Shown in pieces: positions 21,960 through 55,050 of a stretch of DNA of 64,000 bases. The notes beneath the pieces were generated by a model. The model saw only the letters and a program-made list of their open reading frames with translations, was not told the DNA's origin and did not search any database. Each line of letters begins with the position of its first letter. Position 1 is the first letter of the stretch. This stretch comes from Cetorhinus maximus (taxonomy: Eukaryota): the NCBI RefSeq assembly GCF_964194155.1, contig NC_135896.1, forward strand, positions 84,320,001 through 84,384,000. The letters are read 5' to 3'. The position numbers were made by a program, and so were the translations under genes.

Positions 21960-24715
21960 TGGTCCTTTGTCTCCATCCAGATCTAAATAGTATGTCCGAG
22001 GCCCCATATTCCAATCCAATGTTATCAAGGCTTCCCTGTTCCTTCTGATATTTCCCTGGTCCATCTCAACTCTATAAGGTCTCGATCATGGAGCTCTTAC
22101 TATTATAATGCCTTCTTTCTGTTGATCTCATATCCACATCCTCTCCGTGGGCTGTAGCACTTATAAGCCTCGGGTTCTGTGCCTGAAGTTGCCAAGCTTG
22201 ACTGTGTCTTTGTTGCTCCTCATGCTTTCTAACTCTCTCATGATCATCTGGGGTAATGTTATTTTGTAGCGTTTGTTGTCGAACTGGAAGTGATGTTTGC
22301 AGCTGTCCTCCACTCTATAGTTCTGATGTGAGTACCTATTTTTTTTTAGCCGTGACATTCCATAGTTAAGGGATAAGTTACTTTCTTTGTTCTTTTGCAT
22401 CAATTCCTCGATTGTTTGAACTCCTCTTTCTGCTTCCTTGTTCGACTGAGGATATCTAGGTGCACTGGTCACATGCATGAAAATATATTCCTGCACAAAG
22501 TTATGGAACAGTTTGTTAGTAAGCTGAGGACTGTTTTCTGACACCACAACATATGAGAAGCCATGTGTCACGAAGATTCATGATGCAATGCGGTCTACTC
22601 AATTCAAACCATCTGGAGTAGCACTCAATGAGATGATGAAAACTTTTCCTTTAAACTCAAATAAATCCATTCCCAGGTGCTGCTATATCCTCAAAGGAAA
22701 AGTAGAGGGTGCCAGTAGTTCACCCTGCTGTTGGCTATTCAATGCACACGTAAGGGAATTCATGATTAACTCTTCAATGGAATGAGTGATGCCTGGCCAC
22801 CAGCCTGACTGCTGGGCTCTTACTTGGCATTTCACTATTCCTAAGTGACCTTGATGGATTTTCTGGAGAATGTAGAGTTGAAGTGTTTTAGGGATGACTA
22901 GTCTCTCATTGAGAATGAATAAATCATCAATGAATGTGAGACGTTCTCTCAGTTCTAAGTATTGAAAAAATACTGGTTTGTTAGGAGTATAACCTAACCA
23001 TCCATTCTGGCAATACTCATCTTGCTGTTGTGCTTGTATAATCTCTTGTAATCTCTTTCCTGTGGCTGGTAAGTGTTTAGTCATGAGTGAAGTATATTCT
23101 TCCAATCCCTCAATGAACTTTAAATCTTCCAGTTTGATCAATCCATTGGTATTCTTGATGGTGCATTTGCTGTTGCCTAGTATTGCCTGTGAATGTACTC
23201 AGTAACTGAATCATATCTCATGAGTCTCAGTCTAAAATGTTGAAACCTAGTCATCATTTTTGCAATTTCCTTTACGTTAAGAGGAGTAACCAAAGGCTTG
23301 TGGCTGATTTCAATTTTAAACCTTAAACCCATCACAAAATCAGAGAACTTGTCTCAGTCCCTTTCGGCTGCTAATGATTTTTCTCAATGGTTGTATTTCT
23401 TTTCTTGGTGTCCATAAGAGATGTTGAGGTGTAGTAATCAGTCTTCTTTTCCCATATTTTTGAACTTGAAACAGCACTGCACCCAAGCCTGTAGATGATG
23501 TTGGCGATTCTGGATTGTAATGCGCTAGAATTTCTGGTGAAATCAGGAGATTTTTGATCTTGTCAAAAGCATTTTGCAGGTCCATATTCCAGCACCACTT
23601 GACCTTATTTCAACAGTTATCATAATGGCTCATTGATTCCTTCCAAATTTGGTAGGAACTTGCCTACTTAGTTGACCATCCAAAGGAATCTTTGTAATTC
23701 TGTGATGGCTCTCGGCTGTCGGGACCCTCTAGTTGCCTTGATTTTCTGCCAGTTGGCAGTAATTTCTAACACTTGCACAATGAGCCCTAAGAATTTTATC
23801 ATATGCTTTGCAAATTCACATTTGTTGTTTAATGTCAAACTTGCTTCTTGTAGAACCTTGAGGATTGCTCTCATTCAATGGCCATGTCCTTTCCTCGATG
23901 AACCACGTATGAGAATGTCGACCATATGGCATATTACTCCTTCCATGTCTTCCAGGGTCTGAGACATCATTCTTTGGAATGTCTCAGGTACAGAAGCAAT
24001 TCCGAATGGTAACCTGTTAAAATAATGATAACCAAATGGGGTGAAAAGGGTAGTTAAAAATCTGGATTCTTCATCCAGAGGCAACTGTCAAAAGTCACTG
24101 CTTGCATACAATTTTGTGAAGAGGGTGCTTTTTGCTAATTTGGTGAGACTTTCATCCACTGATGCCATTGGGTGAATCTTTAATTGAATCATTAGTCTTG
24201 GTGCTGTGGCCATTCCAGAACAGCACTTAATGGTTACTGGAGAGATGATCCGTTGTTATAACAGGTGTTCAATCTCGATCTTGACTTTGTCCAGTGGTTG
24301 AGGGACTTTCCTCACTGTGGAGGTATATATAGGGTTAGCATCAGCCCTTTGGATTGTGAAATTCTGATTTCAGCTTTCCCAAATGGGGTTGGAAATTCAT
24401 TTCTGCTCTTCAGAAATTTTATCAACCTTGTAAATCAGCCTCAACTGCAAACATGCTTCCCTGATGAGTAATGATGACTCCTGGTTCTTTATCACATACA
24501 GGGGTTCCAAACTTTCTTTATCCTTGTATCTTAATCCCCCAAGTTGCTGGCCTATCACTTTCAGTATAGTCCCTCCTGCAACTTGCAACTAAATAGAGGA
24601 TGGCTGTAATGTGATATTTTTAAGCCACGTTACTTCATCAGGTAATACTGAAACACCCTCACCACTACCTAGCTTGAATTCTGCGGGGTGACCATCAACT
24701 TCTAATTTAATGCTC
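21960..24715 (-). pseudogene. pol: Gypsy pol (protease, RT, RNase H, integrase)
   Basis: TPFGYHYFNRLPFGIASVPETFQR...HMVDILI; HQGHLGIVKC...WWPGI; HVTSAPRYPQSNKEAER. Many stops and frameshifts. Confidence 0.92.
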
Positions 24716-24728
24716 CAATAATTAATTC

Positions 24729-25555
24729 TCATAATGTTATTAGAATTTATTGTAAAGTAGTGTGTGTGTGTATGTGTGTGTGTGTGTGTGTGAGAGACTT
24801 AATTGGATTAAAGGCAGCTGGCCTGGAGGCTTTAATGTAAACATGGTAAACATGGGGAAGTTTAGAATGTAAGGTGTAAAAGGACATTTACATGTTTAAA
24901 TAAACCAGACTACATTGTTTTCAAAGGAGGGGTGAAATGTGTCACCTAGCCAGGTGAAGTTTGGAAACAGTGTGTTTATTTTCCCAAAGATTACTGGTAA
25001 AACTTAGTGCTATGAGAAATTTTTATTATCAGAAAGATAAAGTCCAAAGGCATAGTGAAACAATGGGAATTTGCATTCAAAGGGGGAAAATATGTATAAA
25101 GTAGCAAAGGCTGTGTGTAAAGGTAGGCATTTTTAAGATCTAACAAGTGTGAAAAGCTTTCAGCATCTTTGCCTCAAGCTGCTGTCTTCAGAGAACTGAA
25201 GTTAAGAAAACTCACTTTGATTTCGACTGGTTCAGGGTATTGTGTGTAACCTTACCTGGGTCTTTTAAAATCTGTGTGTCTTACTGTTGCCTTAATGAAA
25301 GTGTAACTAGGAGTCAGATTAAGTAGAAGATTTAGAAGTTATAAAAGTAGTAATTTGTAGATCTATGTGTGTTTAAAATAATTTCTCTTATTAATAAATG
25401 TTTAATCTAGTTTTGTAAAAACCTATAAGACTTGGTGGTCCTTTTACTACTGAATTCAAGGCACGCATCTCGAAATTTATGCAAATTGCTAAACAAATTG
25501 TGGCGTTATTTCAAGTTTCCCTTTGGGATTTGAATAACTCAGCATTTATCACTGG
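24729..25555 (+). mobile_element. LTR-like insertion with a (TG)n tract
   Basis: Non-coding block that splits the Gypsy gag/pol junction. TATAAA at ~25095 and AATAAA at ~25393. Ends unclear. Confidence 0.5.
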
Positions 25556-25559
25556 CTTG

Positions 25560-26690
25560 ATCCTTGACATCAAGGCAACATTTGACTGAGTGTGGCATCA
25601 GGGAGGCTTAGCAAACGAGTCAATGGGAATCAGGGGAAAACTCTCCACTGGTTGGAGTCATGCCTAGCAGAAAGGAAGGTGGTTGTAGTTGTTAAAGGTC
25701 AATCATCTCAGTTCCAGGACATCACTGCAGGAGTTCCTCAGGGTAGTGTGCAAGGCCCAACCATCTTCAACTGCATCATCAATGACCTTCCTTCCATCAT
25801 AAGGTCAGAAGTGGGGATTTTTGCTGATGATTGCACAATGTTCAGCATCATTCACAACTCCTCAGATACTGAAAGTCCATGTCCAAATGCAGCAAGATCT
25901 GGACAATATCCAGGCTTGGGCTGACAAGTGGCAAGTAACATTCACGCCACATAAGTGACAGGCAATGACCATCTCCAACAAGAGAGAATCTGACCACTAA
26001 CCCTTAACATTCAATGGCATTACCAGCACTGAACCCCCCTACCATCAACATCCGCAGGGTTACCATTGACCAGAAACTGAATTAGCCTCATAAATACTGT
26101 GGCTTCAAGAGCAGGTCAGAGGCTAGGAATCTTGCAGCGAGTAACTCACCTCCTGACCCCCCAAAGTCTGTTCACCATCGATAAGGCACAAGTCAGGAGT
26201 ATGATGGAATACTCTCCACTTGCCTAAATGAGTGTAGCTCCAACAACACTCAGTAAGATCAGGACAAAGCAGCCCACTTGATTGGCACCCCATCCACAAA
26301 CATTCACTCCTCCCACCACCAACACAGTGGTAGCAGTGTGTACCATCTAAAAGATGCACAGCAGGAACTCATCAAGGCTCCTTAGACAGCACCTTGCAAA
26401 CCCACAACCTCTACCATCTAGAAGGATGGTACATATGGAAACACCACCACTTGGAGGTTTCCCTCCAAGCCACACACCATCCTGAATTGGAAATATATCG
26501 CCGTTCCTTCACTGTTGCTGGGTCAAAATCCTGGAACTCCCTCCCTAATAGCACTGTGGGTGTACCTACACCACATGGACTGCAGCAGTTCAAGAAGGCA
26601 GCTCACCACCACCTTCTCAAGGGTGTTTAAGAATGGGCAATAAATACTCTCCTAACCAGCGATGCCCACATCCCATGAATGAATTTTTAA
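25560..26690 (+). mobile_element. CR1-group family B LINE, 5'-truncated
   Basis: GVPQGSVQGP...FADD, collinear with 53895-55045, with a (gaat)n tail. Confidence 0.88.
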
Positions 26691-26846
26691 AAATAATTAA
26701 TTGCTGTTTCGTTAACTTCTCCTAGGAAGATTATTTTTTTTTCTGTGGCTCTTCTGCTTCTTGGATTTGACTTGGCCTTGTTATTTTCTCTTTCTTCCTG
26801 TGAATTACTTGTATTTTAGACCAGCAGACCATTTTAAAATTTCCTT

Positions 26847-27636
26847 CATCACTTCGCTCAATTTAGTCTACTGCATTCGCTGCTCCCAATGCGGTCTCCT
26901 CTACATTGGAGAGACCAAATGCAGACTGGGTGACCGCTTTGCGGAACACCTTCAGTCTGTCCACAAGCATCACCCAGACCTCCCTGTCACTTGCCATTTC
27001 AACACACCACCCTGCTCTCATGCCCAAATGTCCGTCCTTGGCCTGCTGCAATGTTCCAGTGAAGCTCAACACAAATTGGAGGAACAGCACCTCATCTTCC
27101 AACTAGGCACTTTGTAGCCTTCCGGACTTAATATTGAGTTCAACAACTTCAGATCATGAACTCTCTCCTCTATCCCCACCCTCTGTCCAATCCCCCTTTT
27201 TCCAATAATTAATAATTTTTTTACACTATTTTTTCTTTTCCCTCCTATTTTTAAATTTATTTTGATCTATTGTTTCATCTCCACCTTTTAGCCCATTTCG
27301 ATCCCTTCCCCCCACTCCACCAGCACTAGGGCCATCTGCCACTAGCTTGATTCCCTTAATGTCCCCATTAGCACATCATTTAGATAATATCACCACCGTC
27401 AACACCCCTTTGTCCTTTTGTCTATGACATCTTTGGCAGTCTCTTCTTAGCCTCCACCTATCACTGGCTCCCTATCAAGCTCTCCTGTCCCACCCCCTTG
27501 TACCAGCTTATATTTTACCTCATTTCTATATGTCTTAGTTCTGATGAAGGGTCATATGGACTCGAAACGTCAACTGTATCCCTCTCCGCAGATGCTGTCA
27601 GACCTGCTGAGTTTTTTCAGATATTTTTGTTTTTGC
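26847..27636 (+). mobile_element. Penelope-like element, 5'-truncated (GIY-YIG endonuclease plus 3' region)
   Basis: NLVYCIRCSQCGLLYIGETKCRLGDRFAEH...HFN...EQHLIFQLGTL, with a 14-bp TSD tttaaaatttcctt (26833-26846, 27637-27650). Confidence 0.92.
27536..27576 (+). ncRNA. Minimal type I hammerhead ribozyme
   Basis: CUGAUGA and GAAAC cores, stem II GGGUC/GACUC, stem I UAGUU/AACUG, and GUC cleavage triplet at 27569-27571. Confidence 0.8.
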
Positions 27637-27650
27637 TTTAAAATTTCCTT

Positions 27651-28384
27651 ACTTTCCACAATTGTGGCACCCTGCTCCCCCTGCTGGACATCCTTCCCTC
27701 TTGTGCAAGGTCTTTCTGCTACACTGAGAGCATTTTAAGCTACAATTAGCATGCTTTTACCCAATTTCATGGGCTTTTGCTTCAATGAGCTTTCTATTTT
27801 CTGCCCAATATATTGAATGGCTTCATCATCCTTTTCCAAGAGACATCACTTTCCCATGAACAACTGCTCTGTTCTGCTTTCTAAGCTCAGTCTGTCACGT
27901 TACCTATACTGCATTTGTGAGAATTAACTCTTCTCTTATTTGCATGAGATGTTAGGGTTTCACCAAGACCCCAGCTACTATATGATTGCATATTAATTCA
28001 TCTCTGAGGATCCCATTTTTGTGATTTTCTACTGGTCTTTACATGTCATTTATCAATGAATCCATGCATTCACACTGTTTTTGCTTCCTCTTATTAAATT
28101 TTGCTTGCTCAATTATTACATTTTTTTGAATACTGAAGCATGCTTCAAATGCCTGGAGGACATCATTGTCTGAACTTGAAGCCTCATCAACTCCCTGTCT
28201 CACTATTACATCATCTGCAGTAGTCCTTACTGCATAAAGTACTGACCTGATCTTTTTATTCCTTCTAAAAACCTGAAGCTATACTGTATCTGGAGAATCT
28301 TTTCATCTAATTGCCCCAGTGTTGAACCTGTTGTAAGTCCCTAGTGCTTCAGAAAGGTTCTGGAAGTGGCAATGTAGACTCCAT
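27651..28384 (-). pseudogene. gag: Gypsy gag of the 20770-28860 element
   Basis: MESTLPLPEPF...DQVSTL...NVIIEQAKFNKRKQ...SLINDM...CHNCGK. Homologous to the gag at 50040-50869. A short piece continues at 26700-26832. Confidence 0.8.
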
Positions 28385-41870: not shown

Positions 41871-42744
41871 GGCGTTTTGATTTCATATGTGGTTGCATGG
41901 GTGCACTATGAGTATTAATCTTATGACACTTATGTAAACATAGTCCACTTGCACTTTAAAGAGGTCTGATGTGGTTTATTTGCAAAGGAATCCTTAAGCA
42001 TGTGCCCGCCCTCGCTTCCCCCCACCATCCACCCACCATCTTCCGGGGGATACCCCTTGTCCCCCGGAATCAGGCATGTGCAAGGTGGCAAAGGTGTTTG
42101 TCAGGTCCCTCGTGAGCCATGTGCAAGAAGTCTTGCGCGCATGCTGAGCCTTTGCCCTTCACATGCTCATCTGTCCCAAAGAATTAGCATTGTGAGTACA
42201 TGCTGGGGTCCGCCTTCCGTTGTCCAGTTGAGCTGACCTGCATTTCCGCCCACCCCCGATGACCCAACGCCCCTGCAGCATCTCGAGATCTCCACCACGA
42301 GGCTCTGCATAGTTGCTTTCAGCTATGGTTGCCGTTACCTTCCAGGTGCTGTCAAATACCTTTTCCCCTCCCCCCGATAACCATTCACCTCTCCCCCCCA
42401 CCAAGTATCATGTTTGACCTCCCCGCTCCTTCACTCCTCCCCCATCACCCTCCATCCAGGGTGCAGGTGAATGTAGAAATCCCCTACCTTCCCGAGGAGC
42501 ACACCCCCGTGATCTGCCCCCATCATTCTGCTGGCCACCAGGATCCACTTCCCCTTCTTCATCCTCTCCAACAACCCTGAGTGCCCCTTCACCCGCCATA
42601 GCTGAACCCTCACCCTCCCACCCTACCGGCTCTCACTGCCCCCTTTAACCCTCACCTTCCCTCCTATCACGAATTCCTGGAGTATGACCCCCAGGACCCA
42701 TCAATTGACACCACTGACCCCTCCCTCTGAACCCCTTTCCCCTC

Positions 42745-43075
42745 ATCCCCCCCATGCCTGTTCACACCTGCACACCCCCCCATCCCCATTCACACCTGCA
42801 CACCATCCCATGCCCGTTCACTCCTGCACACCCCTATCCCCATTCACATCTGTACACCCCCATCCCCATTCACACCTGCACACCATCCCATGCCCGTTCA
42901 CTCCTGCACACCCCTATCCCCATTCACATCTGTACACCCCCATCCCCGTTCACACCTGCACACACCCCTATCCCCATTCACACCTGCACACCCTCATCCC
43001 CATTCACACCTGCACACCCCCACCCCCATTCACACCTGCAAACGCCCCCATCCCCATTCACACCTGCACAACCCC
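42745..43075. repeat. C-rich ~25-bp minisatellite with an 80-bp higher-order duplication
   Basis: Unit ccccattcacacctgcacacccc; caccatcccatgcccgttca recurs at 42801 and 42881. Confidence 0.9.
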
Positions 43076-44319
43076 TCCGATCTCCCCACTAGCACTCTGG
43101 CATGGCCCTTCCCACCCTCCCGTTCCATACCAGCTCACCCATTCCATTACCCCTGCAACATCCCTCTCTGTCCCCTGCCAACTCAAAACTCCCCCAACCC
43201 CCTTTAGGCCTCTGCACCCATTCCACCTCTTCATCTCTCTCCTCCCTGTCTAATCCATCCCACCCCTCCCCAGCACAGAGCATCACCACCCAACAGCACC
43301 TCCTGCTGCCGTCCACCTGCAAATCCTCCTGGAAGAAGCTGCTGCTTGAAGGTCCACTTGGTTGATGGTCCACCCACCCCCTGCTGCGCGTGGTGTTCAA
43401 GGGTCTACAGTCACTGGAGGCCTCCACCCCGATCGCTGCAGGCTGCCCCGGACCTTCCTCAGGTAAGTCCCGAAATCTTCACGTCACGTTGACCCGGAAG
43501 TGTTCAGGACCAGCACGATATCCCGCAAGCGGCGCAGACAATCGGGCGGGGGGAGGGGGGAATGATTCAGGTCGGGCCTTCATCTGCATCCCATTAATGG
43601 GATGCAAAACGATTTCACACCAGCCTCTGGTGGGATTGGCAACCCGCCATGATGGACGGGAACGCACGCTGCTGCTGCCATTTCACGCCAGTGGGAAACT
43701 GATGTTTCAGCTCTCGCTGCATCGTTCCCCCACTGCCTGCCATTAAACCCGCCACAGGGGGGACTGGAAAATTCCACCCCAAGTCGGAGGTTCCGCTAGA
43801 AGGTCTTCAGCCACACTTCCTCTGAGAGGATTTCCTCAGCCATAGGAAGTAGTCAATTCTGGAGAATGTACATCGGGATTTTGCCTGTGGACGAGAGGGA
43901 AATACTTCAATAGTTTCCGCAGCATGATTTGTCTGCCTTCTTGAAGATAGTTACAATTGTTGCATTCCTGAAGTTGTGGGCAGGGAGTTATTTTTCACCC
44001 AAAATCCGTAGGATAAGTGAATGGAGTTTTGATGTGAGCAAAAGCCCATCAGCTTTGAAGACCTCAGCTGGATTACCATTGTTGTATGATGTGCCTGCAT
44101 ACCACTGTAATGTAAAGGTACTTGGTAGAGGCAGGGTTAATGTGGGACTGGAGAATAGCACCGCCCATGGTATGATGCATAGAGTCACATGTTAATAGAC
44201 TGAGAGAACAGTCTAGAGAGAATACTCTGGAAGCAGCCTGCTTGGAGCTAGTAGCTCCATGCATAACAGTAACCGAGGATCTGTAAATAGTTAAAGGTTA
44301 ACAATATATGGTTCATGTT

Positions 44320-46285: not shown

Positions 46286-48485
46286 ACATTCGCATGGTCC
46301 ACGTGGTCTCCTGGATTGTTTTTGATAGCCAGTAGGAGTTGCAGAGGAACTTTCCAGATTTCTTCTTCTGATGGCTGTGAATACTTTTTGCCTCTCCCAG
46401 GAGATTATATGGCTGTGGTGGGGTGGGAAGTGTCTCATCTTAATGCCATTGGCATCAAGCAGGTCTTATCCTTTCTATCATATTCATACGCTCTATGTGC
46501 ATACTTCACACCTCCATACTTCACTTTCCAATTATATACACATTTGTCAAACAATAAGTCTTCTGTGGGAGCATGAGTCTCCCTGCAATCAAAATACTCT
46601 TGTGATACTATGGCTCAGGGTTTCTACTGATTTAGTGTGTGCTTGGAGGATTTTTATATCAGGTTAAGTAATTAGATTTGCTGTCTATTACTCTCTGAAC
46701 TATTTTATCACTAGATGTACTTCGGTAGCACATACAATTCCTCTCTGGTTGACTTAATTGCCTTTCCCTCTCTCCATACTTATCTCCAAACCAAAGCATG
46801 TAAAATATCAGAGTCATCCATTAATCTGAAATTCCTCCTCCCTGAACCAGATTTCAATCGTAATCTAATGTCTCACTGTTAAGAAAATGTCTTTCTATAT
46901 GACTGCCAAGGGTAGTAAATGGAGGCTTTTTATTTTTTATCTCCTAAATGTGCAAAACACAAGGAGTAAAACTGCAATAAAGTTTCATTTGTTTTATTTT
47001 CATGGATTGAAATGCCCCCTGGCACTCCTGCGATTGATTTAATTGGTCCTTTAGGCTAGAGTCTTGCTCGAGAAGTTGAAATCCAAAGGCTGTAATCTCA
47101 GGCCTGTTAAACCATTTTGTGGTACCAATGCCCCAACAACAACTTACATTATATTGTGCCTTTAACATAGTAAGATGTAACAAATGGCAATTCACAGGAG
47201 CATTACCTGACAAAATTTGACACTGAGCTACAGAAGATGATTTCGCAAAAGGTAAACAGTGTTTGGAGGAGCGTCTTAAGAAAGAAGTAGAGTGGTGTAG
47301 AGGCTTGGGGAAGGAATTTCAGAGCCTATGGTCCAGTTAACTGCAGGCACAGCAGCCAATGGCGGGGTGATTAAAATTGGGAATGCACAAGAGGCCAGAT
47401 ACCCCGAGGGCTTGTAGGTCTGGAAGAGACTACAGAGATGGGGAGGGGTGAGGCCATGGACACACTTGAAAATAAGGATGAGAATTTTTAAACCAAGGTG
47501 CTGCTGGACCAGGAGCCAATGTAAATCAGCAGGCACAGGGTAAGGGGTGAATGGGACTCAGTATGAGTTAGGATCTGGGCAGCAGTGTTTTGGATAAACT
47601 CAAATTTATGGAGGGTAGAAATGGAAAGTTGGTGAACATAGGAATGGTCGATTCCAGAGGTAACAGAGACATGGCTGAGAGTTTCAGCAGCAGGTGAGCT
47701 GAAGTGGGGTGGAGACAGCCAATGCTACAGAGGTGGAAGTAGATGGTCTTGGCGATGTGGATATATGGCCAGAGGCTCAGCTCTGGGTCAAATAGTTTGT
47801 CAATGTTGTGAGCAGTCTGGTGCAACCCCAAACATTTGCCAAGGAGTTGAATGGAGTCATTGGCTAGGGAATAGAATTTGTCAAAGAAAATTTCTGCTCA
47901 TCCAGGACTGGATGTTGAACAAGGAGTATGACAATTCAGAGACAGCAGAGAGTTGAGAGAGATGGTGGTGAGAAGAGCTGGTTGCTGTCAGCGTACATGT
48001 GGAAAGTGATGTGCTTTCAGATGATGTTGGCAAGAGAAAGCATAGGGCTGATCAATAGAAGGGAGTCAAGGATAAACCCTAAGGGGCCTCCAGAGGTAAA
48101 TATGTGGATACAAGAAGAGAAACCATTGCAGATTTCTCTGGTTATGACTGAATAGATAGAAATGAAACCAAACAAGCACAGTCCTGCCTAGTTGGCAACA
48201 GAGAAGCTTTGGAGGAGGGTGGTGTGGCCAACTATGTCAAAAGCTGCAGATCCGTTTATCGTGGTTTCATCTTGGGATTTGTTAGCTTCTTACTCCAAAG
48301 GCGTCAATCCCCATCAGTGTCCTAGGCTCCCTAGCAGAATGTCTGTGTTCCCTTAAGGCAAACACATTGGTGGAGTGGGATAGCAGCTTCTCACGACAGC
48401 TGGCTCCTGGGCTGTGACACTTACGATTGTAAAGACCAATCAAGGAAAAATTGATTCAAGAGAGAACCCTCCAGGATTCGAACGA

Positions 48486-48971
48486 TCATAGCGCCTTGAA
48501 ATGGAAGGCAATGAACTGAAATTCTCCCTCTCCTCTTCTGCGTTGCACACTGGGAAGGGTGGAAACACCGGCTTGACAAAATGAAGCACTTTCAGCTCCT
48601 ATGAAGAACTTTTCAGCTGTATCATTCACCACTGCTGTGATGACAAGAGAAGCATTCAATACCTGAGTGAGGAATGAATCTGGTATTTGAAAAGAAGAAC
48701 GAAGAACATCCTGAAGACACTGCTGGAGATGAGGAAAGGAGAACTTTCCTACCACTCTTAGGGTAGGAATTTCCCTTTCTACATGTAGTGATATCGCTTC
48801 CACACTTGCTTCAGCATGAGGCTGCCCCACTGCAGACGTTGATACCTCGGGGCCTGCTGCAGAAAGTAGAATTGCACCATCATCAACAGTGGAATAACCT
48901 TCCGGTCTGGGATCTATAGGAATGTTCCTGTGTAGTACTTTGGTCTGCAGACTTACTTGAAAGTTTAACAT
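48486..48971 (-). CDS. 161-codon open frame of unknown origin inside the Gypsy derivative
   Basis: ORF track only; same strand as gag; no motif recognised. Confidence 0.3.
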   Translation of the reverse strand: MLNFQVSLQTKVLHRNIPIDPRPEGYSTVDDGAILLSAAGPEVSTSAVGQPHAEASVEAISLHVEREIPTLRVVGKFSFPHLQQCLQDVLRSSFQIPDSFLTQVLNASLVITAVVNDTAEKFFIGAESASFCQAGVSTLPSVQRRRGEGEFQFIAFHFKAL

Positions 48972-49047
48972 CAGCTTCGGGCGATTTTACTCCAAGTCTC
49001 TGTCATAATCAGAAAGACCACTAGTGTCAGTACTTCTGCAGACTCTT

Positions 49048-49881
49048 TCATCTGATCCTTAGATGCGGAATGGGATTTACACACTTCTGTACTGCAGCAC
49101 ATTCACTTTCTTTTGTTGCACTATTTCTAATGTATAAATCCCTCTCTGTGGCTTGGTTGTGACTGTGTGGCTGCAAATAGCTGGGTTTATAGTTCAGCCT
49201 TCTCTTTTTGGTGTTAGATTTCTCCAACTCATGCTTAATTTCAACATTTTCAAGCTCCATTTGATGCTCAACTTTAAATTTTTCTAAGGTGCTATTCAGC
49301 TGTAGAAGCTTTATAGTTTGGGCCTCAGCTTCTTTACTGAAAGAAATCTTGAGTGCTTCCATGGCTAGCTGATGAGATCCAAGTGCGGACTCTAGCTTTC
49401 GTTTATGCAGATTAATGACCTCTGAACTTTTACTATTGGTTTGAAGCGATTTGGAGTCAAGCATCTCATTCTCCCTGGATAGCTTTTTCCTGGCTGCTTC
49501 CAATTGTTGTTGCCTGTCATTCGTCGGCTCAGTGGAATAAGCAGACAAATTCACCTCTTTATTACCTTCTTCAACAGGGGGGTTATTCCCCTCAAAAGAG
49601 ACATAGGAGACTTCACGATAATTGGCAGTGGAGTCAAAGAGTGTAGTAAGGTCCAGGTCCTCTTTTTCCAACAGATCATCTGCCTCTGTGGCGGCTACAT
49701 TCTCTTGCACTCTTTCCTGAAAGAGGCAACTGAGGTCTAGAATATCATCTTGTGGGTGGTCACCATCTTTCTTGGTGCATCCTATTCCTGCTTCTTCTAG
49801 CCTGTTCCAAAAGAGAAGTGAAAGATTTGTAATATCCTCCTGCGGTCCCTGGAGTTGAATAGAGGGTGGTTCCAGTGTCAC
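49048..49881 (-). CDS. Chimeric ORF: protease tail, acidic repeats, CLIP1-like coiled coil
   Basis: TLEPPSIQLQGP resembles the protease tail ITLQPSSI*LQV at ~24600. KLSRENEMLDSK...KLESALGSHQLAMEALKISFSK resembles CLIP1 as I recall it. Confidence 0.75.
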   Translation of the reverse strand: MTLEPPSIQLQGPQEDITNLSLLFWNRLEEAGIGCTKKDGDHPQDDILDLSCLFQERVQENVAATEADDLLEKEDLDLTTLFDSTANYREVSYVSFEGNNPPVEEGNKEVNLSAYSTEPTNDRQQQLEAARKKLSRENEMLDSKSLQTNSKSSEVINLHKRKLESALGSHQLAMEALKISFSKEAEAQTIKLLQLNSTLEKFKVEHQMELENVEIKHELEKSNTKKRRLNYKPSYLQPHSHNQATERDLYIRNSATKESECAAVQKCVNPIPHLRIR

Positions 49882-50039
49882 TCTATTCAGCCATGAAACT
49901 GTCAGCTAACACTAAGACATGAACCCCTGTGTCTAGCTTGAATTTGGTCAGAGCTATTTACATCAATATCACCACTCCAATACTGGTTTTTATTTTCCAT
50001 TATTTCTCCTAGGAAGATGATTTCCTAGTTGTCAAAGTC

Positions 50040-50869
50040 TTGAATTCCTTGACTGGAGGTTTCTTTAGCAGATATGTCCTTCTGTCTTGTCAACACAGAT
50101 TTCCTAGAATGCAGGACACTTTAAAATGGCCTAACTTGCCTCAGCCATGGCACTGTGCAATTCAAACGGGACATTCTTCCTGTATGTGGACCTTCTTCCC
50201 GTCACAGAAAAGACATAGGAAAATGGAGGTTGGGGCCTTTTCAGGCATATCCCTTGCTTTACTTTTGGAATTAAAACCCACAAGCCTAACGACTTAATCA
50301 GGTTGTTCCTGCCGGATTTCCCTCACATTTCATACAAAGACCATATTCTGCCTCCACTCTTTGGCCTGTCTGGCCAGTTGTACAGCTTTGCTTAAATCTA
50401 AATCTTCCCGAGATTTTAAGGAGTCAGAGAGATCCTCATCTAAAACGTCAACGGCTATTCCATCTCTAATCAGGTTGTCTTTTCGGGTTCCAAACTCACA
50501 ATTTTTGGCTAGGCAATACAAGTCATTGATGAATGAGTTAATCCCTCCACCTTGTTTTTGATGGCGGCGATTAAATTTCGCCCTCTCTATGACAGTATTT
50601 TTTACGAAGACTGAAGTATGAGTCAAAGACTCTGATGACATCCCATAGGAAGCTGTCTTTAGTTCACCCTTTGTCTGGCCAGCACATCATCTGCTATTCT
50701 CCCAACATGGTATAACAAAGTGCTAACTTGATCTTTGTTCTCTTTACTCGCAAGATCTGAGGCGTTGCGTTACTGGCTAAAATCGTCTTAGCCAATTTTG
50801 CCATTGTTCAGCTTGTCTGGGACCCTCCATGTTTTGAAATTATTCTGGTAGGGGAAAAGTAGTAGCCAT
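50040..50869 (-). pseudogene. gag: Gypsy gag with zinc knuckles
   Basis: MATTFPLPE...WQNWLRRF...DQVSTLLY...ERAKFNRRHQ...FINDLYCLAKNCEFG...CHG*GKLGHFKVSC. Confidence 0.88.
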
Positions 50870-51060
50870 TTCTCACCCTGATTCGAGGTTGTCTTTCCCC
50901 ACGCTGCTTGTCTTGCCAGTAGCTGCCCTGCTCTTGTTACTTTGTCACCTCCAGTGTGATTGCTGGATTGGCCTCAAAGTCCTTCACCCGCTGAGCTACA
51001 CTGTTGCTGGGCTTCACTTGAGGATTTTCCTGTCATGTTCTGTTGTTTCTCTGTGGGTGT

Positions 51061-51077
51061 AATCACTGCTGCCACCA
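51061..51077 (-). promoter_or_regulatory. Primer-binding site, tRNA-Leu-like
   Basis: TGGTGGCAGCAGTGATT versus the tRNA-Leu complement TGGTGGCAGCGGTGGGAT, 2 nt from the LTR. Confidence 0.7.
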
Positions 51078-51079
51078 CC

Positions 51080-51339
51080 TGTTATCATGGTTTCATCTCA
51101 GGGATTTGTTAGCTTCTTACTCTAGAAGAGATCTTGCTGGAGGGAATTGTCTTTTTTTTTTGAAAACACATTTATTTACACATTAACTATTTACGAAGGT
51201 TAAATAAGATCAAATCATAGCTGGAGCTACTTTCTAAGGTGCTTCTCACTCATCTTCTCTCAGTGTGACATCACTGTGACATATCGCTCCTTATGCACAT
51301 GCTCAGTAACTATTACTGGAGTTAACCCTTTACTCTACA
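51080..51339 (-). repeat. 5' LTR of the Gypsy derivative
   Basis: TG..CA termini, AATAAA on the minus strand at ~51172, bounded by the PBS and TSD. Confidence 0.85.
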
Positions 51340-52264
51340 GCAGATGGACCAAGTAGGATAAGGAGGGATAACTTATTGTGGCCACAGTTACACAGAATGC
51401 CACTTGTGACTTTGATGAGAGCCAGTTCAGCACCGTAGGAAAACCGGTTTGAAGGATTTCAAACGTGGAGTTGTGGGAAAGATGGGCATGGATTCAGAGA
51501 AAGACAACTTGTTCAAGAGCTTTGGAGAGGAAAAGGATGCTGGAACGGGGGTGGCAGTTTGTAAGGGTCTTGGGGTCAAGGTTTTCTTTTGAGGAGTAGG
51601 GTGATGATGGCAGATTTGAAGGAAAGGGGGATAATATCTGAAGAGATGGAACTGTTAGGAAAGGAAGCAATTTGGCAGGAAGAGGGTCAAAGAAGCAGGA
51701 TGTGAGTCTGATGGACAAGATGCACTTGGAGGGGAGTGAGAGGGCAGATTGGAGGGAAACTTGAGAAAGCTGCATGATCAATACAGGCGAGAAAATCCTT
51801 TCAACTCATTGTGTTCACAGCTTGTGAGCTGAAGTAACCCAGATAGCACTCCAGTCCATGGAGAACAGGCACCTCATCTCTCCTTGTGTCTGTATCTTGT
51901 TACCTGCTGGTTCTTCCTATTTGTACTTTGTATGTTTGGAGGCTTGGACAAGGTTGTTTTTAGCGTAGATGCTGCATTTGCGGATAGATCCTTAATCTGA
52001 ACACCTAGATCTGATTGGAACAGTAAATGGAAGTATATAAAGTTAATGGGAAGACAGGAAGCATTGAAGAAAAAAGATCATAGTCCACCTTGTCTATTTT
52101 CTACCCTCGCATGGTACAATGATAATGGAGTTGTTGACTAATCATAACAATCAATTACTATCGCTGAGTTTACTAGACATGAGATGAGGAAACTCCCAGT
52201 GCTGGAGAGCTTTGGGAACCATAGGTACCATTGGGTACCTGTTCCTCAAAAACCACTTATGACA

Positions 52265-55050
52265 ACAACAGCAATGGCAAACCCAGCCCTGTCGACCCTG
52301 CACAGTCCTCCCTACTAATATCTGGGAGCTAGTGCCAAAATTGGGAGAGCTGTCTCACAGACTAGTCAAGCAACAGCCTGACATAGTCATCCTCATGGAA
52401 ACATATCTTGCAGATAGTGTTCCAGACACCACCATCACCATCCCTGGGTATGTCCTGTCCCATCGGCAGGACTGATCCAGCACAGTGGTATACAGTCGTG
52501 GGGGGGAATGTTGGCCTGAGAGTCCTCAACATCGACTCAGGATGAAGTTTCATGGCATCAGGTCAAACATGAGCAAGGAAATCTCCTGCTGATTACCACA
52601 TACTGTCCTCCCTCAGCTGATGAATCAGTGCTCCTCCATGTTGAACACCACTCGGAGGAAGCACTGAGGTGGCAAGGGCGCAAGATGTACTCTGGGCGGG
52701 CAACTTCAATGCCCATCACCAAGAGTGGCTCGGTAGCACCAAGCTGGCTGAGTAGACTGGGTCTGTGGCAGGTGGTGAGGGAATGAACAAGAGGGAAAAA
52801 CATACTTGACCTCATCCTCACTAACCTGCCTGCTGCAGATGCATCTGTCCATGACAGTATTGGTAGGAGTGACCACTGCACAGTCATTGTGGAGACAAAG
52901 TCCCATCTTCACACTGAGGATACCCTCTATCGAGTTGTGTGGCACCACCACTGTGCTAAATGGGATAGATTTCAAACAGATCTGGCAACTCAAGATTGGG
53001 CATCAATGAGGCGCTGTGAGCCACCTGCAGCAGAATTGTACACAAACACAATCTGTAACCCTATGGCCTGGCCTATCCCCCCGCTCTACCATTACCATCA
53101 AGCCAGGGGATCAACCCTGGTTCAATGAAGAGTGCAGGAGGGCATGCCAGGAGCAGCACCAAACAGCATAAGCAGCAAGTGAAAGACAGAGCTAAGTGAT
53201 CCCACAATCAGTCGATCAGATCTAAGCTCTGCAGTTCTGCCACATCCAGTTGTGAATGGTGACGGACAATTAAGCAACTCACTGGAGGAGCATGCTCCAC
53301 AAATATCCCCATCCTCAATGATGAGGGAGCTCAGCACATCAATGCAAAAGATAAGGCTGAAGCATTTGCTACAATCTTCAACCACAAGCGCTGAGTGGAC
53401 GATCCATCTCAGCCTCCTCCAGAGATCCCCAGCATCACAGGTGCCAGTCTTCAGCTAATGTAATTCACTCCACATGATATCAAGAAATGGCTGAAGGCAC
53501 TGATACTGCAAAGGCAGTGGGCCCTGACAATATTCCGGCAATAGTACTGAAGAATTGTGCTCCAGAACTTGCCGAGCCCCTAGCCAAGCTGTTCCAGTAC
53601 AGCTACAACATTTACCCGGCAATGTGGAAAGTTGCCCGGGTATGTCCTGTACACAAAAAGCAGGACAAAACCAACGCAGTCAATTACCGCCTCATCAGTC
53701 TACACTCGATCATCAGTAAAGTGATGGAAGGGGTCATCAACAGTGCTATCAAGTGGCACTTGCTTAGCAATAATCTGCTCACTGACACTCAGTTTAGGCT
53801 CTGCTAGGGCCACTCAGCTCCTGATCTCATTACAGCCTTGGTTCAAATATGGACAAAAGAGCTGAACTCCCGAGGTGCGGTGAGAGTGACTGCCCTTGAT
53901 ATCAAGACCGCATTTAACCGAGTGTGGCATCAAGGAGCCCAAGCAAAACTGGAGTCAATGGGAATCAGGGGGAAAACTCTCCACTGGTTGGAATCATACC
54001 TAGCACAAAGGAAGATAATTGTGGTTGTTGGAGGCCAGTCATCTGAGTTTCAGGATATCACTGCAGGAGTTCCTCAGGGTAGTGTCCTAGGCCCAACCAT
54101 CATCAGCTGCTTCATCAATGATCTTCCTTCCATCATAAGAATCCAAAGTAAGGATGTTCACTGATGACTGCACAATGTTCAGCACTATTCATGACTCCTC
54201 AGATACTGAAGCAGTCCATGTCCAAATGCAGCAAGACCTGGACAATATCCAGGCTTGGGCTGACAAATGGCAAGTAACATTTGCGCCACAGAAGTGTCAG
54301 GCAATGACCATCTCCAACAAGAGAGAATCCAACTATTGCCCCTTAATGTTCAATGACATTATCACGACTGAATCCCCAACTATCAACATCCTGGGGGTTA
54401 CCATTGACCAGAAACTGAACTGGACTAGCCATATAAATACTGTGGCCACAAGAGCAGATCAGAGGCTAGGAATCCTGTGATGAGGAACTCACTCCCTGAC
54501 TCCCCAAAGCCTGTCCACCAACTTCAAGGCACAAGTCAGGAGTGTGATGAAATACTGTCCACTTGCCTGGATGACTGCAGCTCCCACAACACTCAAGAAA
54601 CTTGACATGGTCCAGGGCAAAGCAGTCCACTTGATTGGCACCACATCCACAAACATTCACTCCCTCCACCACTGACGCACAGTAGCAGCAGTGTGTACTA
54701 TCTATAAGATGCACTGCAGGAATTTACCAAGGCTCCTTAGACAGCACCTTCCAAACCCACGACCACTCCCATCTAGAAGGACAAAGGCAGCAGATAGATG
54801 GGAACGCCACCGCCTGGAAGTTCCCCTCCAAGCCAACCACCATTCTGACTTGAAAATATATTCTTCACTGTTGCTGGTTAAAAATCCTGAAACACCCTCC
54901 CTAACAGCTCTGTGGGTGTACCTACACCACATGGACTGCAGCCAGTGGTTCAAAGGCAGCTCACCACCACCTTCTCAAGGGCAGTTAGGGATGGGCAATA
55001 AATGCCGGCCCAGCCAGCGAAGCCCACATCCCGTGAGTGAATAAAAAAAA
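52265..55050 (+). mobile_element. CR1-group family B LINE, most of ORF2 (APE endonuclease and RT)
   Basis: NIWELVPKLGEL...DIVILMET, KAVGPDNIP, DIKTAFNRVWH, GVPQGSVLGP, FTDD, and an A-rich tail. Confidence 0.92.

Follow-up and report, generated by a model that had tools for sequence, protein, structure and literature searches.

How does a fragment of a host gene come to lie inside a retrotransposon, and what keeps it there through repeated copying? The question is raised by a 64,000-nt stretch of Cetorhinus maximus DNA (hereafter the window), in which a Ty3/Gypsy element carries, downstream of its protease, sequence resembling the coiled coil of CLIP1 (CLIP-170). A first-pass annotation of the window had proposed that host CLIP1 mRNA was captured in place of pol, as a sense, in-frame extension of gag and protease (PR) that might aid oligomerisation or co-assembly, or engage the host microtubule plus-end protein. 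The comparisons described below favor, with a probability of roughly 0.6, an account in which a pol-less Gypsy lineage of Gag, PR, and a tail termed X gained the CLIP1 piece by a template switch of reverse transcriptase (RT) and retained it as a passenger for its open frame.

The window element

The element is an old, dead copy of a Ty3/Gypsy long terminal repeat (LTR) retrotransposon, and all of its features other than the target site duplication (TSD) lie on the minus strand. The TSD is an identical pair of 5 bp, GCAGA, found on the outer sides of the 5′ LTR (51,340–51,344) and of the 3′ LTR (48,246–48,250). The 5′ LTR (51,078–51,339) is approximately 260 nt long, begins with TGT, and is of a type common to pol-bearing copies and the CLIP-bearing subfamilies A and B. 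The primer-binding site (PBS; 51,061–51,077) follows directly, begins with TGG, and is presumably complementary to tRNA-Leu. The element had been described as bounded by TSD, LTR, and PBS, which is correct for the TSD, 5′ LTR, and PBS, but the 3′ LTR is reduced to its final ∼45 nt (48,251–48,295). In this copy, most of the 3′ LTR has been deleted together with the polypurine tract, which other copies retain ahead of that LTR. LTR pairs are present in 13 CLIP-bearing copies.

The gag region (approximately 49,980–50,900) is decayed by many stops and frameshifts, retains zinc-knuckle remnants, and is indistinguishable from gag of the autonomous family P. It is followed by the N-terminal half of the aspartic protease (49,847–49,979, with DTG at ∼49,933), the C-terminal half of which is missing in subfamily B, the type to which the window copy belongs. 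Tail X opens with an acidic part that contains three D-x-x-D-L-x-x-L-F-like repeats (49,510–49,846) and resumes at 48,296–49,029; both parts are homologous to families D and E, which are free of CLIP1. Between them lie the CLIP1 exon fragment, in sense orientation and in frame (49,167–49,509), and a spacer of ∼140 nt (49,030–49,166) that is missing from family D. RT, RNase H, and integrase are all missing. The open frame at 49,048–49,905 contains the peptide on which the CLIP1 assignment was originally based, and a Pfam scan of the window ORFs gave no match above the cut-off. A frameshift near 49,212 falls inside the CLIP1 piece, and the similarity indeed runs on beyond it, as had been suspected from the reading HQKEKAEL*TQL. 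The sense, in-frame fusion to gag and PR is found in the replicating family but not in the window copy, where gag is broken and the DTG motif lies in a different frame from the CLIP1 piece.

A fragment of a CLIP1 exon

The CLIP1 origin proposed for the segment is borne out. In a protein search, residues 115–240 of the frame matched a CLIP1-like protein of Stegostoma tigrinum (P0002) with 60% identity (E 5e-21), the best and sole match among 244 candidates. A genome search with P0002 located host CLIP1 on contig C12, where one large exon encodes residues ∼488–804, and a CLIP1 paralogue on C9. Protein identity between the window piece and the host exon (L031, G000:C12) is 66% over 99 amino acids, compared with 34% for the paralogous exon (L032), which rules out the paralogue as donor. 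A low-complexity coiled-coil match is ruled out by the single CLIP1-like match and by the local score, which is 281 against a maximum of 94 across 500 composition shuffles. At the DNA level, 269 of 343 aligned bases (78%) are identical between window positions 49,509–49,167 and the host exon.

The boundaries of the piece were drawn from per-base identity over 51–52 copies, which rises at position 2967 of L031 and drops past 3310. They delimit 344 nt encoding residues 575–689, a region that is coiled coil only. The best Pfam stretches of P0002 place CAP-Gly near residues 213–277 and the zinc knuckle at 1414–1430; neither domain was therefore captured, which speaks against the suggested engagement of microtubule plus ends. 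A comparison of the insert ends with exon boundaries places both breakpoints within the single exon: its splice acceptor, at 2709, lies ∼258 nt outside one end of the piece, and its donor, after 3653, lies 343 nt beyond the other. Because no intron is crossed, we infer an mRNA origin rather than read it from a splice junction. At the 5′ junction, host and family D have a raw match of 7 nt (CAACAAC); clear microhomology is absent from the 3′ junction.

Among the copies compared, the CLIP1 piece has neither a TSD nor a poly(A) of its own. A later single-copy retrocopy with such features is ruled out, since the piece is present with identical ends in 38 of 38 loci (L033–L070). Only the native frame among the six reading frames of the host piece is stop-free (0 vs. 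5–14 stops), and a filter on the frame alone therefore predicts capture in sense and in frame. The ∼140-nt spacer was also considered as a continuation of the exon; 13–90 of 300 shuffles equaled its score, and the likeness is not significant. A pol-bearing copy of family P (L072, G000:C12:95,007,025–95,008,525) lies ∼415 kb from the CLIP1 gene. Since this copy has no CLIP1 sequence, its proximity is probably a coincidence.

Copies, subfamilies, and helpers

The CLIP1-bearing family is multi-copy, with at least 73 sites: a 19-nt motif within the piece occurs at 73 genomic positions with no more than one mismatch (control, 1). Assuming ∼10% decay per copy, the total is estimated at 150–300 CLIP-bearing copies. 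The tail of these copies, ∼1.7 kb long, follows one of three 5′ regions, designated A (17 rows), B (28 rows), and C (28 rows). Type A has a complete protease. In type B, gag and half of the protease of family P are joined to the tail at a short common stretch; the gag-PR part is indistinguishable from that of P, and the B–P internal distance is zero. Type C differs from A and B in both gag and LTR. In all, three gag modules and two LTR types precede the tail. A deletion of the last third of the CLIP1 piece, common to 15 of 30 C-type loci, defines subfamily C2. A tree of 67 tails is star-like, with a C clade (support 0.98; 20 of 21 C rows) and D apart. Twenty duplicate and seven short loci were left out before the copy alignment, and one near-duplicate (L151/L182) was also omitted.

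Most loci with the same 5′ portion lack CLIP1 (19 of 20 found with an LTR-gag-PR query), and in each of the 10 CLIP-free loci examined from this set, the sequence beyond the protease encodes RT-, RNase H-, and integrase-like peptides. Pfam detected pol domains (RT/RNase H/integrase) in six of seven family P pieces tested, four of them above the curated cut-off, and the order PR-RT-RNase H-integrase is present in this autonomous family, which has the same LTR. The proposal of a non-autonomous family is upheld: B copies lack RT and integrase, yet they were amplified and have a pol-bearing relative with the same LTR in P. As judged from these shared sequences, family P is the likely helper.

Some loci display further features. 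The LTR starts of L034, L042, L151, L195, and L199, which belong to different families, have their first ∼15 nt and the preceding purine tract in common and then diverge, which likely reflects a common integrase end and crossover point. At locus L045, part of the CLIP1 piece recurs in a second copy, itself fragmented (oriented 69–862), that lies ∼2 kb upstream of the main one. The near-identical copy pairs L145/L146 (C117) and L151/L152 (C9) are probably segmental duplications and not independent insertions.

Tail X and the order of events

Families D and E have their own LTRs, gag, protease, and tail X, and CLIP1 is absent from both (0 of 30 and 0 of 16 loci, respectively). The idea that CLIP1 took the place of pol does not hold, since these CLIP-free families already have X instead of pol. 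CLIP1 is also missing from two proteins of the catshark Scyliorhinus torazame, P0004 and P0005, that contain X-like sequence. The family comparison indicates that X occupied the pol position before the capture and that CLIP1 was inserted into X. The protease–X junction is the same in D and A, and the D–A alignment holds on both flanks of the insertion. CLIP1 makes up about one fifth of the tail and interrupts X, of which little was lost. D differs from A/B/C at 305 of 1,017 shared columns (30%), whereas host and copies have only 53 shared differences in 348 nt; the gain of CLIP1 therefore postdates the split of D.

The N- and C-terminal motifs of X are recognizable in A, D, and E, and the acidic repeats number three in A and D and two in E. 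The repeated D-L-x-x-L-F motifs are what we take to be SIM-like. X matches no Pfam family, and a profile search among 1.84 billion representatives (3 matches) found no relative outside sharks. With regard to a host gene as the source of X, residues 20–135 matched nothing in 251 candidates, which is weak evidence.

Two gene models contain X. P0003, a bile salt-activated lipase-like model, includes 107 residues of the D copy L164 (G000:C10:15,213,087–15,216,706) and a gag-like stretch and is likely a mis-spliced annotation. The identity of those 107 residues to L164 rules it out as an independent relative of X. In P0005, an Ig V-set gene model, the second half corresponds to an E-type X tail (identity up to 60%), either through mis-annotation or through exonisation of the element. 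Its X-like stalk, considered as a host-gene source of X, matches only dispersed, mostly stop-containing repeats off the Ig-V cluster. Gag or PR remnants are present in 15 of the 16 relatives of the stalk that were fetched (L193–L208).

Reading frame and constraint on residues

The CLIP1 frame contains no shared stops over 1,680 nt in 54 CLIP-bearing copies, whereas the two alternative frames hold 34 and 55. The host row in this alignment is misaligned at its 3′ end, and 26 copies analyzed without it gave the same result. Families A, B, C, and D (14, 17, 33, and 27 rows) keep the frame unbroken from the start of gag through the protease and on to X, save for one stop site at ∼55% in D, within the protease, that is probably due to CpG decay. 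The open length of X is 1,188 nt for family D and 1,131 nt for family E, and of 11 copies checked, 8 have a frame that stops 96–117 nt (∼110) short of the 3′ LTR. Neutral simulation yields 1.2–1.4 stops per 100 codons at d = 0.15; at the D–A divergence, ∼9 stops would therefore be expected, and none is shared. Outside the CLIP block, seven of eight lineage-level indels are multiples of three (7 of 14 when the six fragments of the block are counted), and the B junction, the C junction, and the C2 deletion are all in frame. That the CLIP1 piece alone stayed stop-free is unremarkable (P 0.08–0.22). The open frame across all five families, A–E, points to selection on translation.

Constraint on the residues was estimated as omega (dN/dS) from distances corrected for within-family decay, with two of the 16 E loci left out. 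Omega is 0.04–0.28 for gag, where dS is near saturation and the values come mostly from autonomous parents, and 0.14 for the protease. For X, it is 0.59, 0.51, and 0.53 (CIs 0.34–0.80), with a within-family neutral baseline of 0.63–0.83; an earlier A-vs.-D alignment gave 0.72 (0.51–1.03). The acidic 5′ part gives 0.41 (0.25–0.65) between D and E, and D-vs.-E differences by codon position are 0.38/0.35/0.43, with the third position highest. These values suggest that X is under weak constraint at most, yet is not fully neutral, and that the X peptide may have had a role.

For the CLIP1 piece, the dN/dS comparison with shark CLIP1 proposed at the outset gave dS 0.52–0.60, dN 0.20–0.26, and omega 0.35–0.50 in 60 of 71 rows (11 were left out for poor alignment); host and element branches are combined in this value. 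The shared host–copy differences include 23 of 53 that are synonymous, and the 30 non-synonymous ones divide into 20 on the element side, 5 on the host side, and 5 that are ambiguous. Our own bound for the element stem is an omega of about 0.3–0.7, which is compatible with purifying selection. On these comparisons, the protein sequence of the tail appears to have mattered little.

Origin of the fused tail

In the favored account, host CLIP1 mRNA would have been co-packaged, and RT would have switched template at the microhomology, which would have placed CLIP1 in X. Pol-bearing relatives with the same LTR would supply RT and integrase in trans. Translation to ∼110 nt short of the 3′ LTR would be needed in cis for copying, either to shield the RNA from long-3′ UTR decay, or so that nascent Gag polyprotein could claim the RNA from which it is translated, or both. 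Recombinants that break the frame would go uncopied, and the residues of X would matter weakly. The host origin, breakpoints, 5′ microhomology, CLIP-free sisters, open frame, and in-frame junctions are observed, whereas we infer the cis-translation step. RNAs with long 3′ UTRs do decay in the work described in PMC6277124, which fits the shielding option.

Alternatively, the CLIP1 coil could have been a functional gain, by dimerising the Gag polyprotein, by promoting co-assembly with helper Gag-Pol, or by pairing with host CLIP-170. The presence of the CLIP-bearing tail behind several gag modules and LTR types would suit such a gain, as would the host-vs.-copy omega with its share of synonymous differences, and CLIP170 is reported to bind HIV-1 cores (PMC8259435), although the host protein is concerned there. 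Nevertheless, this reading is unlikely. D and E amplified without CLIP1, D being of the same age (within-family distance 0.18), and C2 amplified despite the loss of one third of the piece. Shared non-synonymous differences fall mostly on the element side, the hydrophobic residues of the coil are not spared (5 of 30 changed vs. 13 of 85 other residues), and the piece contains neither the CAP-Gly nor the zinc-knuckle domains. The unspared hydrophobics and the amplification of C2 also count against the original suggestion of oligomerisation or co-assembly. Similarly doubtful is a bolder scenario of an old shark guild of pol-less Gypsy parasites that exchanged X between unrelated gag/LTR families, in which one branch gained access to helper machinery through the CLIP-170 coil, either because the coil dimerised the parasite polyprotein or because it tethered this polyprotein to host CLIP-170.

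A somewhat better, still unlikely, alternative holds that the frame stayed open because the X peptide was itself useful, acting in place of Pol as an acidic, disordered stretch with repeated D-L-x-x-L-F motifs and a patch of basic residues at its C terminus, and that CLIP1 landed in a tolerant linker. The omega CIs of X lie mostly under the baseline, third positions differ most between D and E, and recognizable terminal motifs and the X-like catshark proteins are consistent with this possibility. However, the constraint on X is several-fold below that on gag, the earlier A-vs.-D omega is neutral, repeat number varies, and the Pfam and profile searches placed X in no family and with no non-shark relative. 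Entry of the fragment as DNA, with the CLIP1 locus as the template for break repair or gene conversion in an already integrated element, is very improbable. Two ends inside one exon with no intron spanned and the spacer of ∼140 nt after the 3′ end would agree with it, but an exonic sense piece with junction microhomology and without TSD or poly(A) is the pattern of LTR template switching in the cases described in PMC5131818, and no element copy is present in the 6.5 kb around the CLIP1 exon.

Relation to known systems

LTR-mediated retroposition has been described in animals (Tan et al., 2016; PMC5131818), in a study that also cites maize Bs1. As in the cases described there, partial host sequence lies between LTRs in sense and in frame, with putative microsimilarity at a junction and no poly(A) or TSD of its own, and was recopied as a non-autonomous element. 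Unlike those cases, the shark recipient was already pol-less and the capture was into a pre-existing tail ORF; the product is found at at least 73 sites behind three gag modules, and its frame was long kept open rather than merely belonging to a young copy. In Arabidopsis, the Athila families that lack pol (Marco and Marin, 2008; PMC2410132) are likewise described as long-lived, non-autonomous members of Gypsy: their ORFs are maintained, they depend on mobilisation in trans, and they were born of recombination between distant families. Purifying selection is reported there for gag or gag plus env, whereas the shark tail is novel, weakly constrained, and contains a host exon. Bdelloid LTR retrotransposons, as presented in PMC5408684, also have an extra ORF common to different retroelement types, some with coiled coils. 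The bdelloid extra ORFs are encoded separately as ORF3s next to pol and are env-like or enzymatic, whereas X stands in the place of pol as a fusion to gag-PR.

A literature search that covered few subscription papers and neither Repbase nor Dfam returned no account of a shark CLIP1 capture or of Gag-PR-X elements. The shark families make the capture of a vertebrate host exon by an LTR element legible stepwise in one genome, with pre-capture sisters, breakpoints, swaps, and a deletion. With gag as an internal control, selection for an open frame can be separated from selection on the protein, which explains how captured exons are frequently in frame without being useful. X/CLIP1 tails also leak into shark gene models and yield false CLIP1 paralogues, which warrants caution in annotation.

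The mouse IAP element I-delta-1 derives from a retrovirus-like element by an in-frame deletion in gag-pol and is not known to carry a foreign tail or a host exon. Translation of this non-autonomous element is reported to be important in cis for its trans-complementation (Saito et al., 2008, cited in PMC10924933), and among the sources cited here it appears to be the closest precedent for the cis mechanism proposed above. The shark families support the idea that non-autonomous LTR elements need translation in cis.

Age and surroundings of the window copy

The LTRs of a pair differ by a mean of 15.7% in the 13 CLIP-bearing copies and 13.8% in seven autonomous copies; from this similar divergence, the two groups were active at about the same time. 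In a second species, contigs at single-copy depth (two runs from two studies) span both ends of the insertion at ∼95% identity. The insertion is thus common to both species and several times older than their split. Between the second species and the window, 30 of 577 bases differ in the CLIP/X part and 31 of 855 in gag-PR, and the CLIP/X part is no less divergent than gag-PR or the flanks. The window copy, with its broken gag, has no sign of exaptation.

Other repeats lie nearby in the window. A second Gypsy element (22,632–28,278, minus strand) has gag, protease, RT, and integrase matches, and a ∼3 kb gap between its gag and protease suggests a later insertion. Just past the 5′ LTR, a decayed LINE (52,260–54,900, plus strand), presumably CR1/L2-like, encodes endonuclease-like and RT-like peptides. 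A tandem array with a spacing of 26–28 nt occupies 42,694–43,128.
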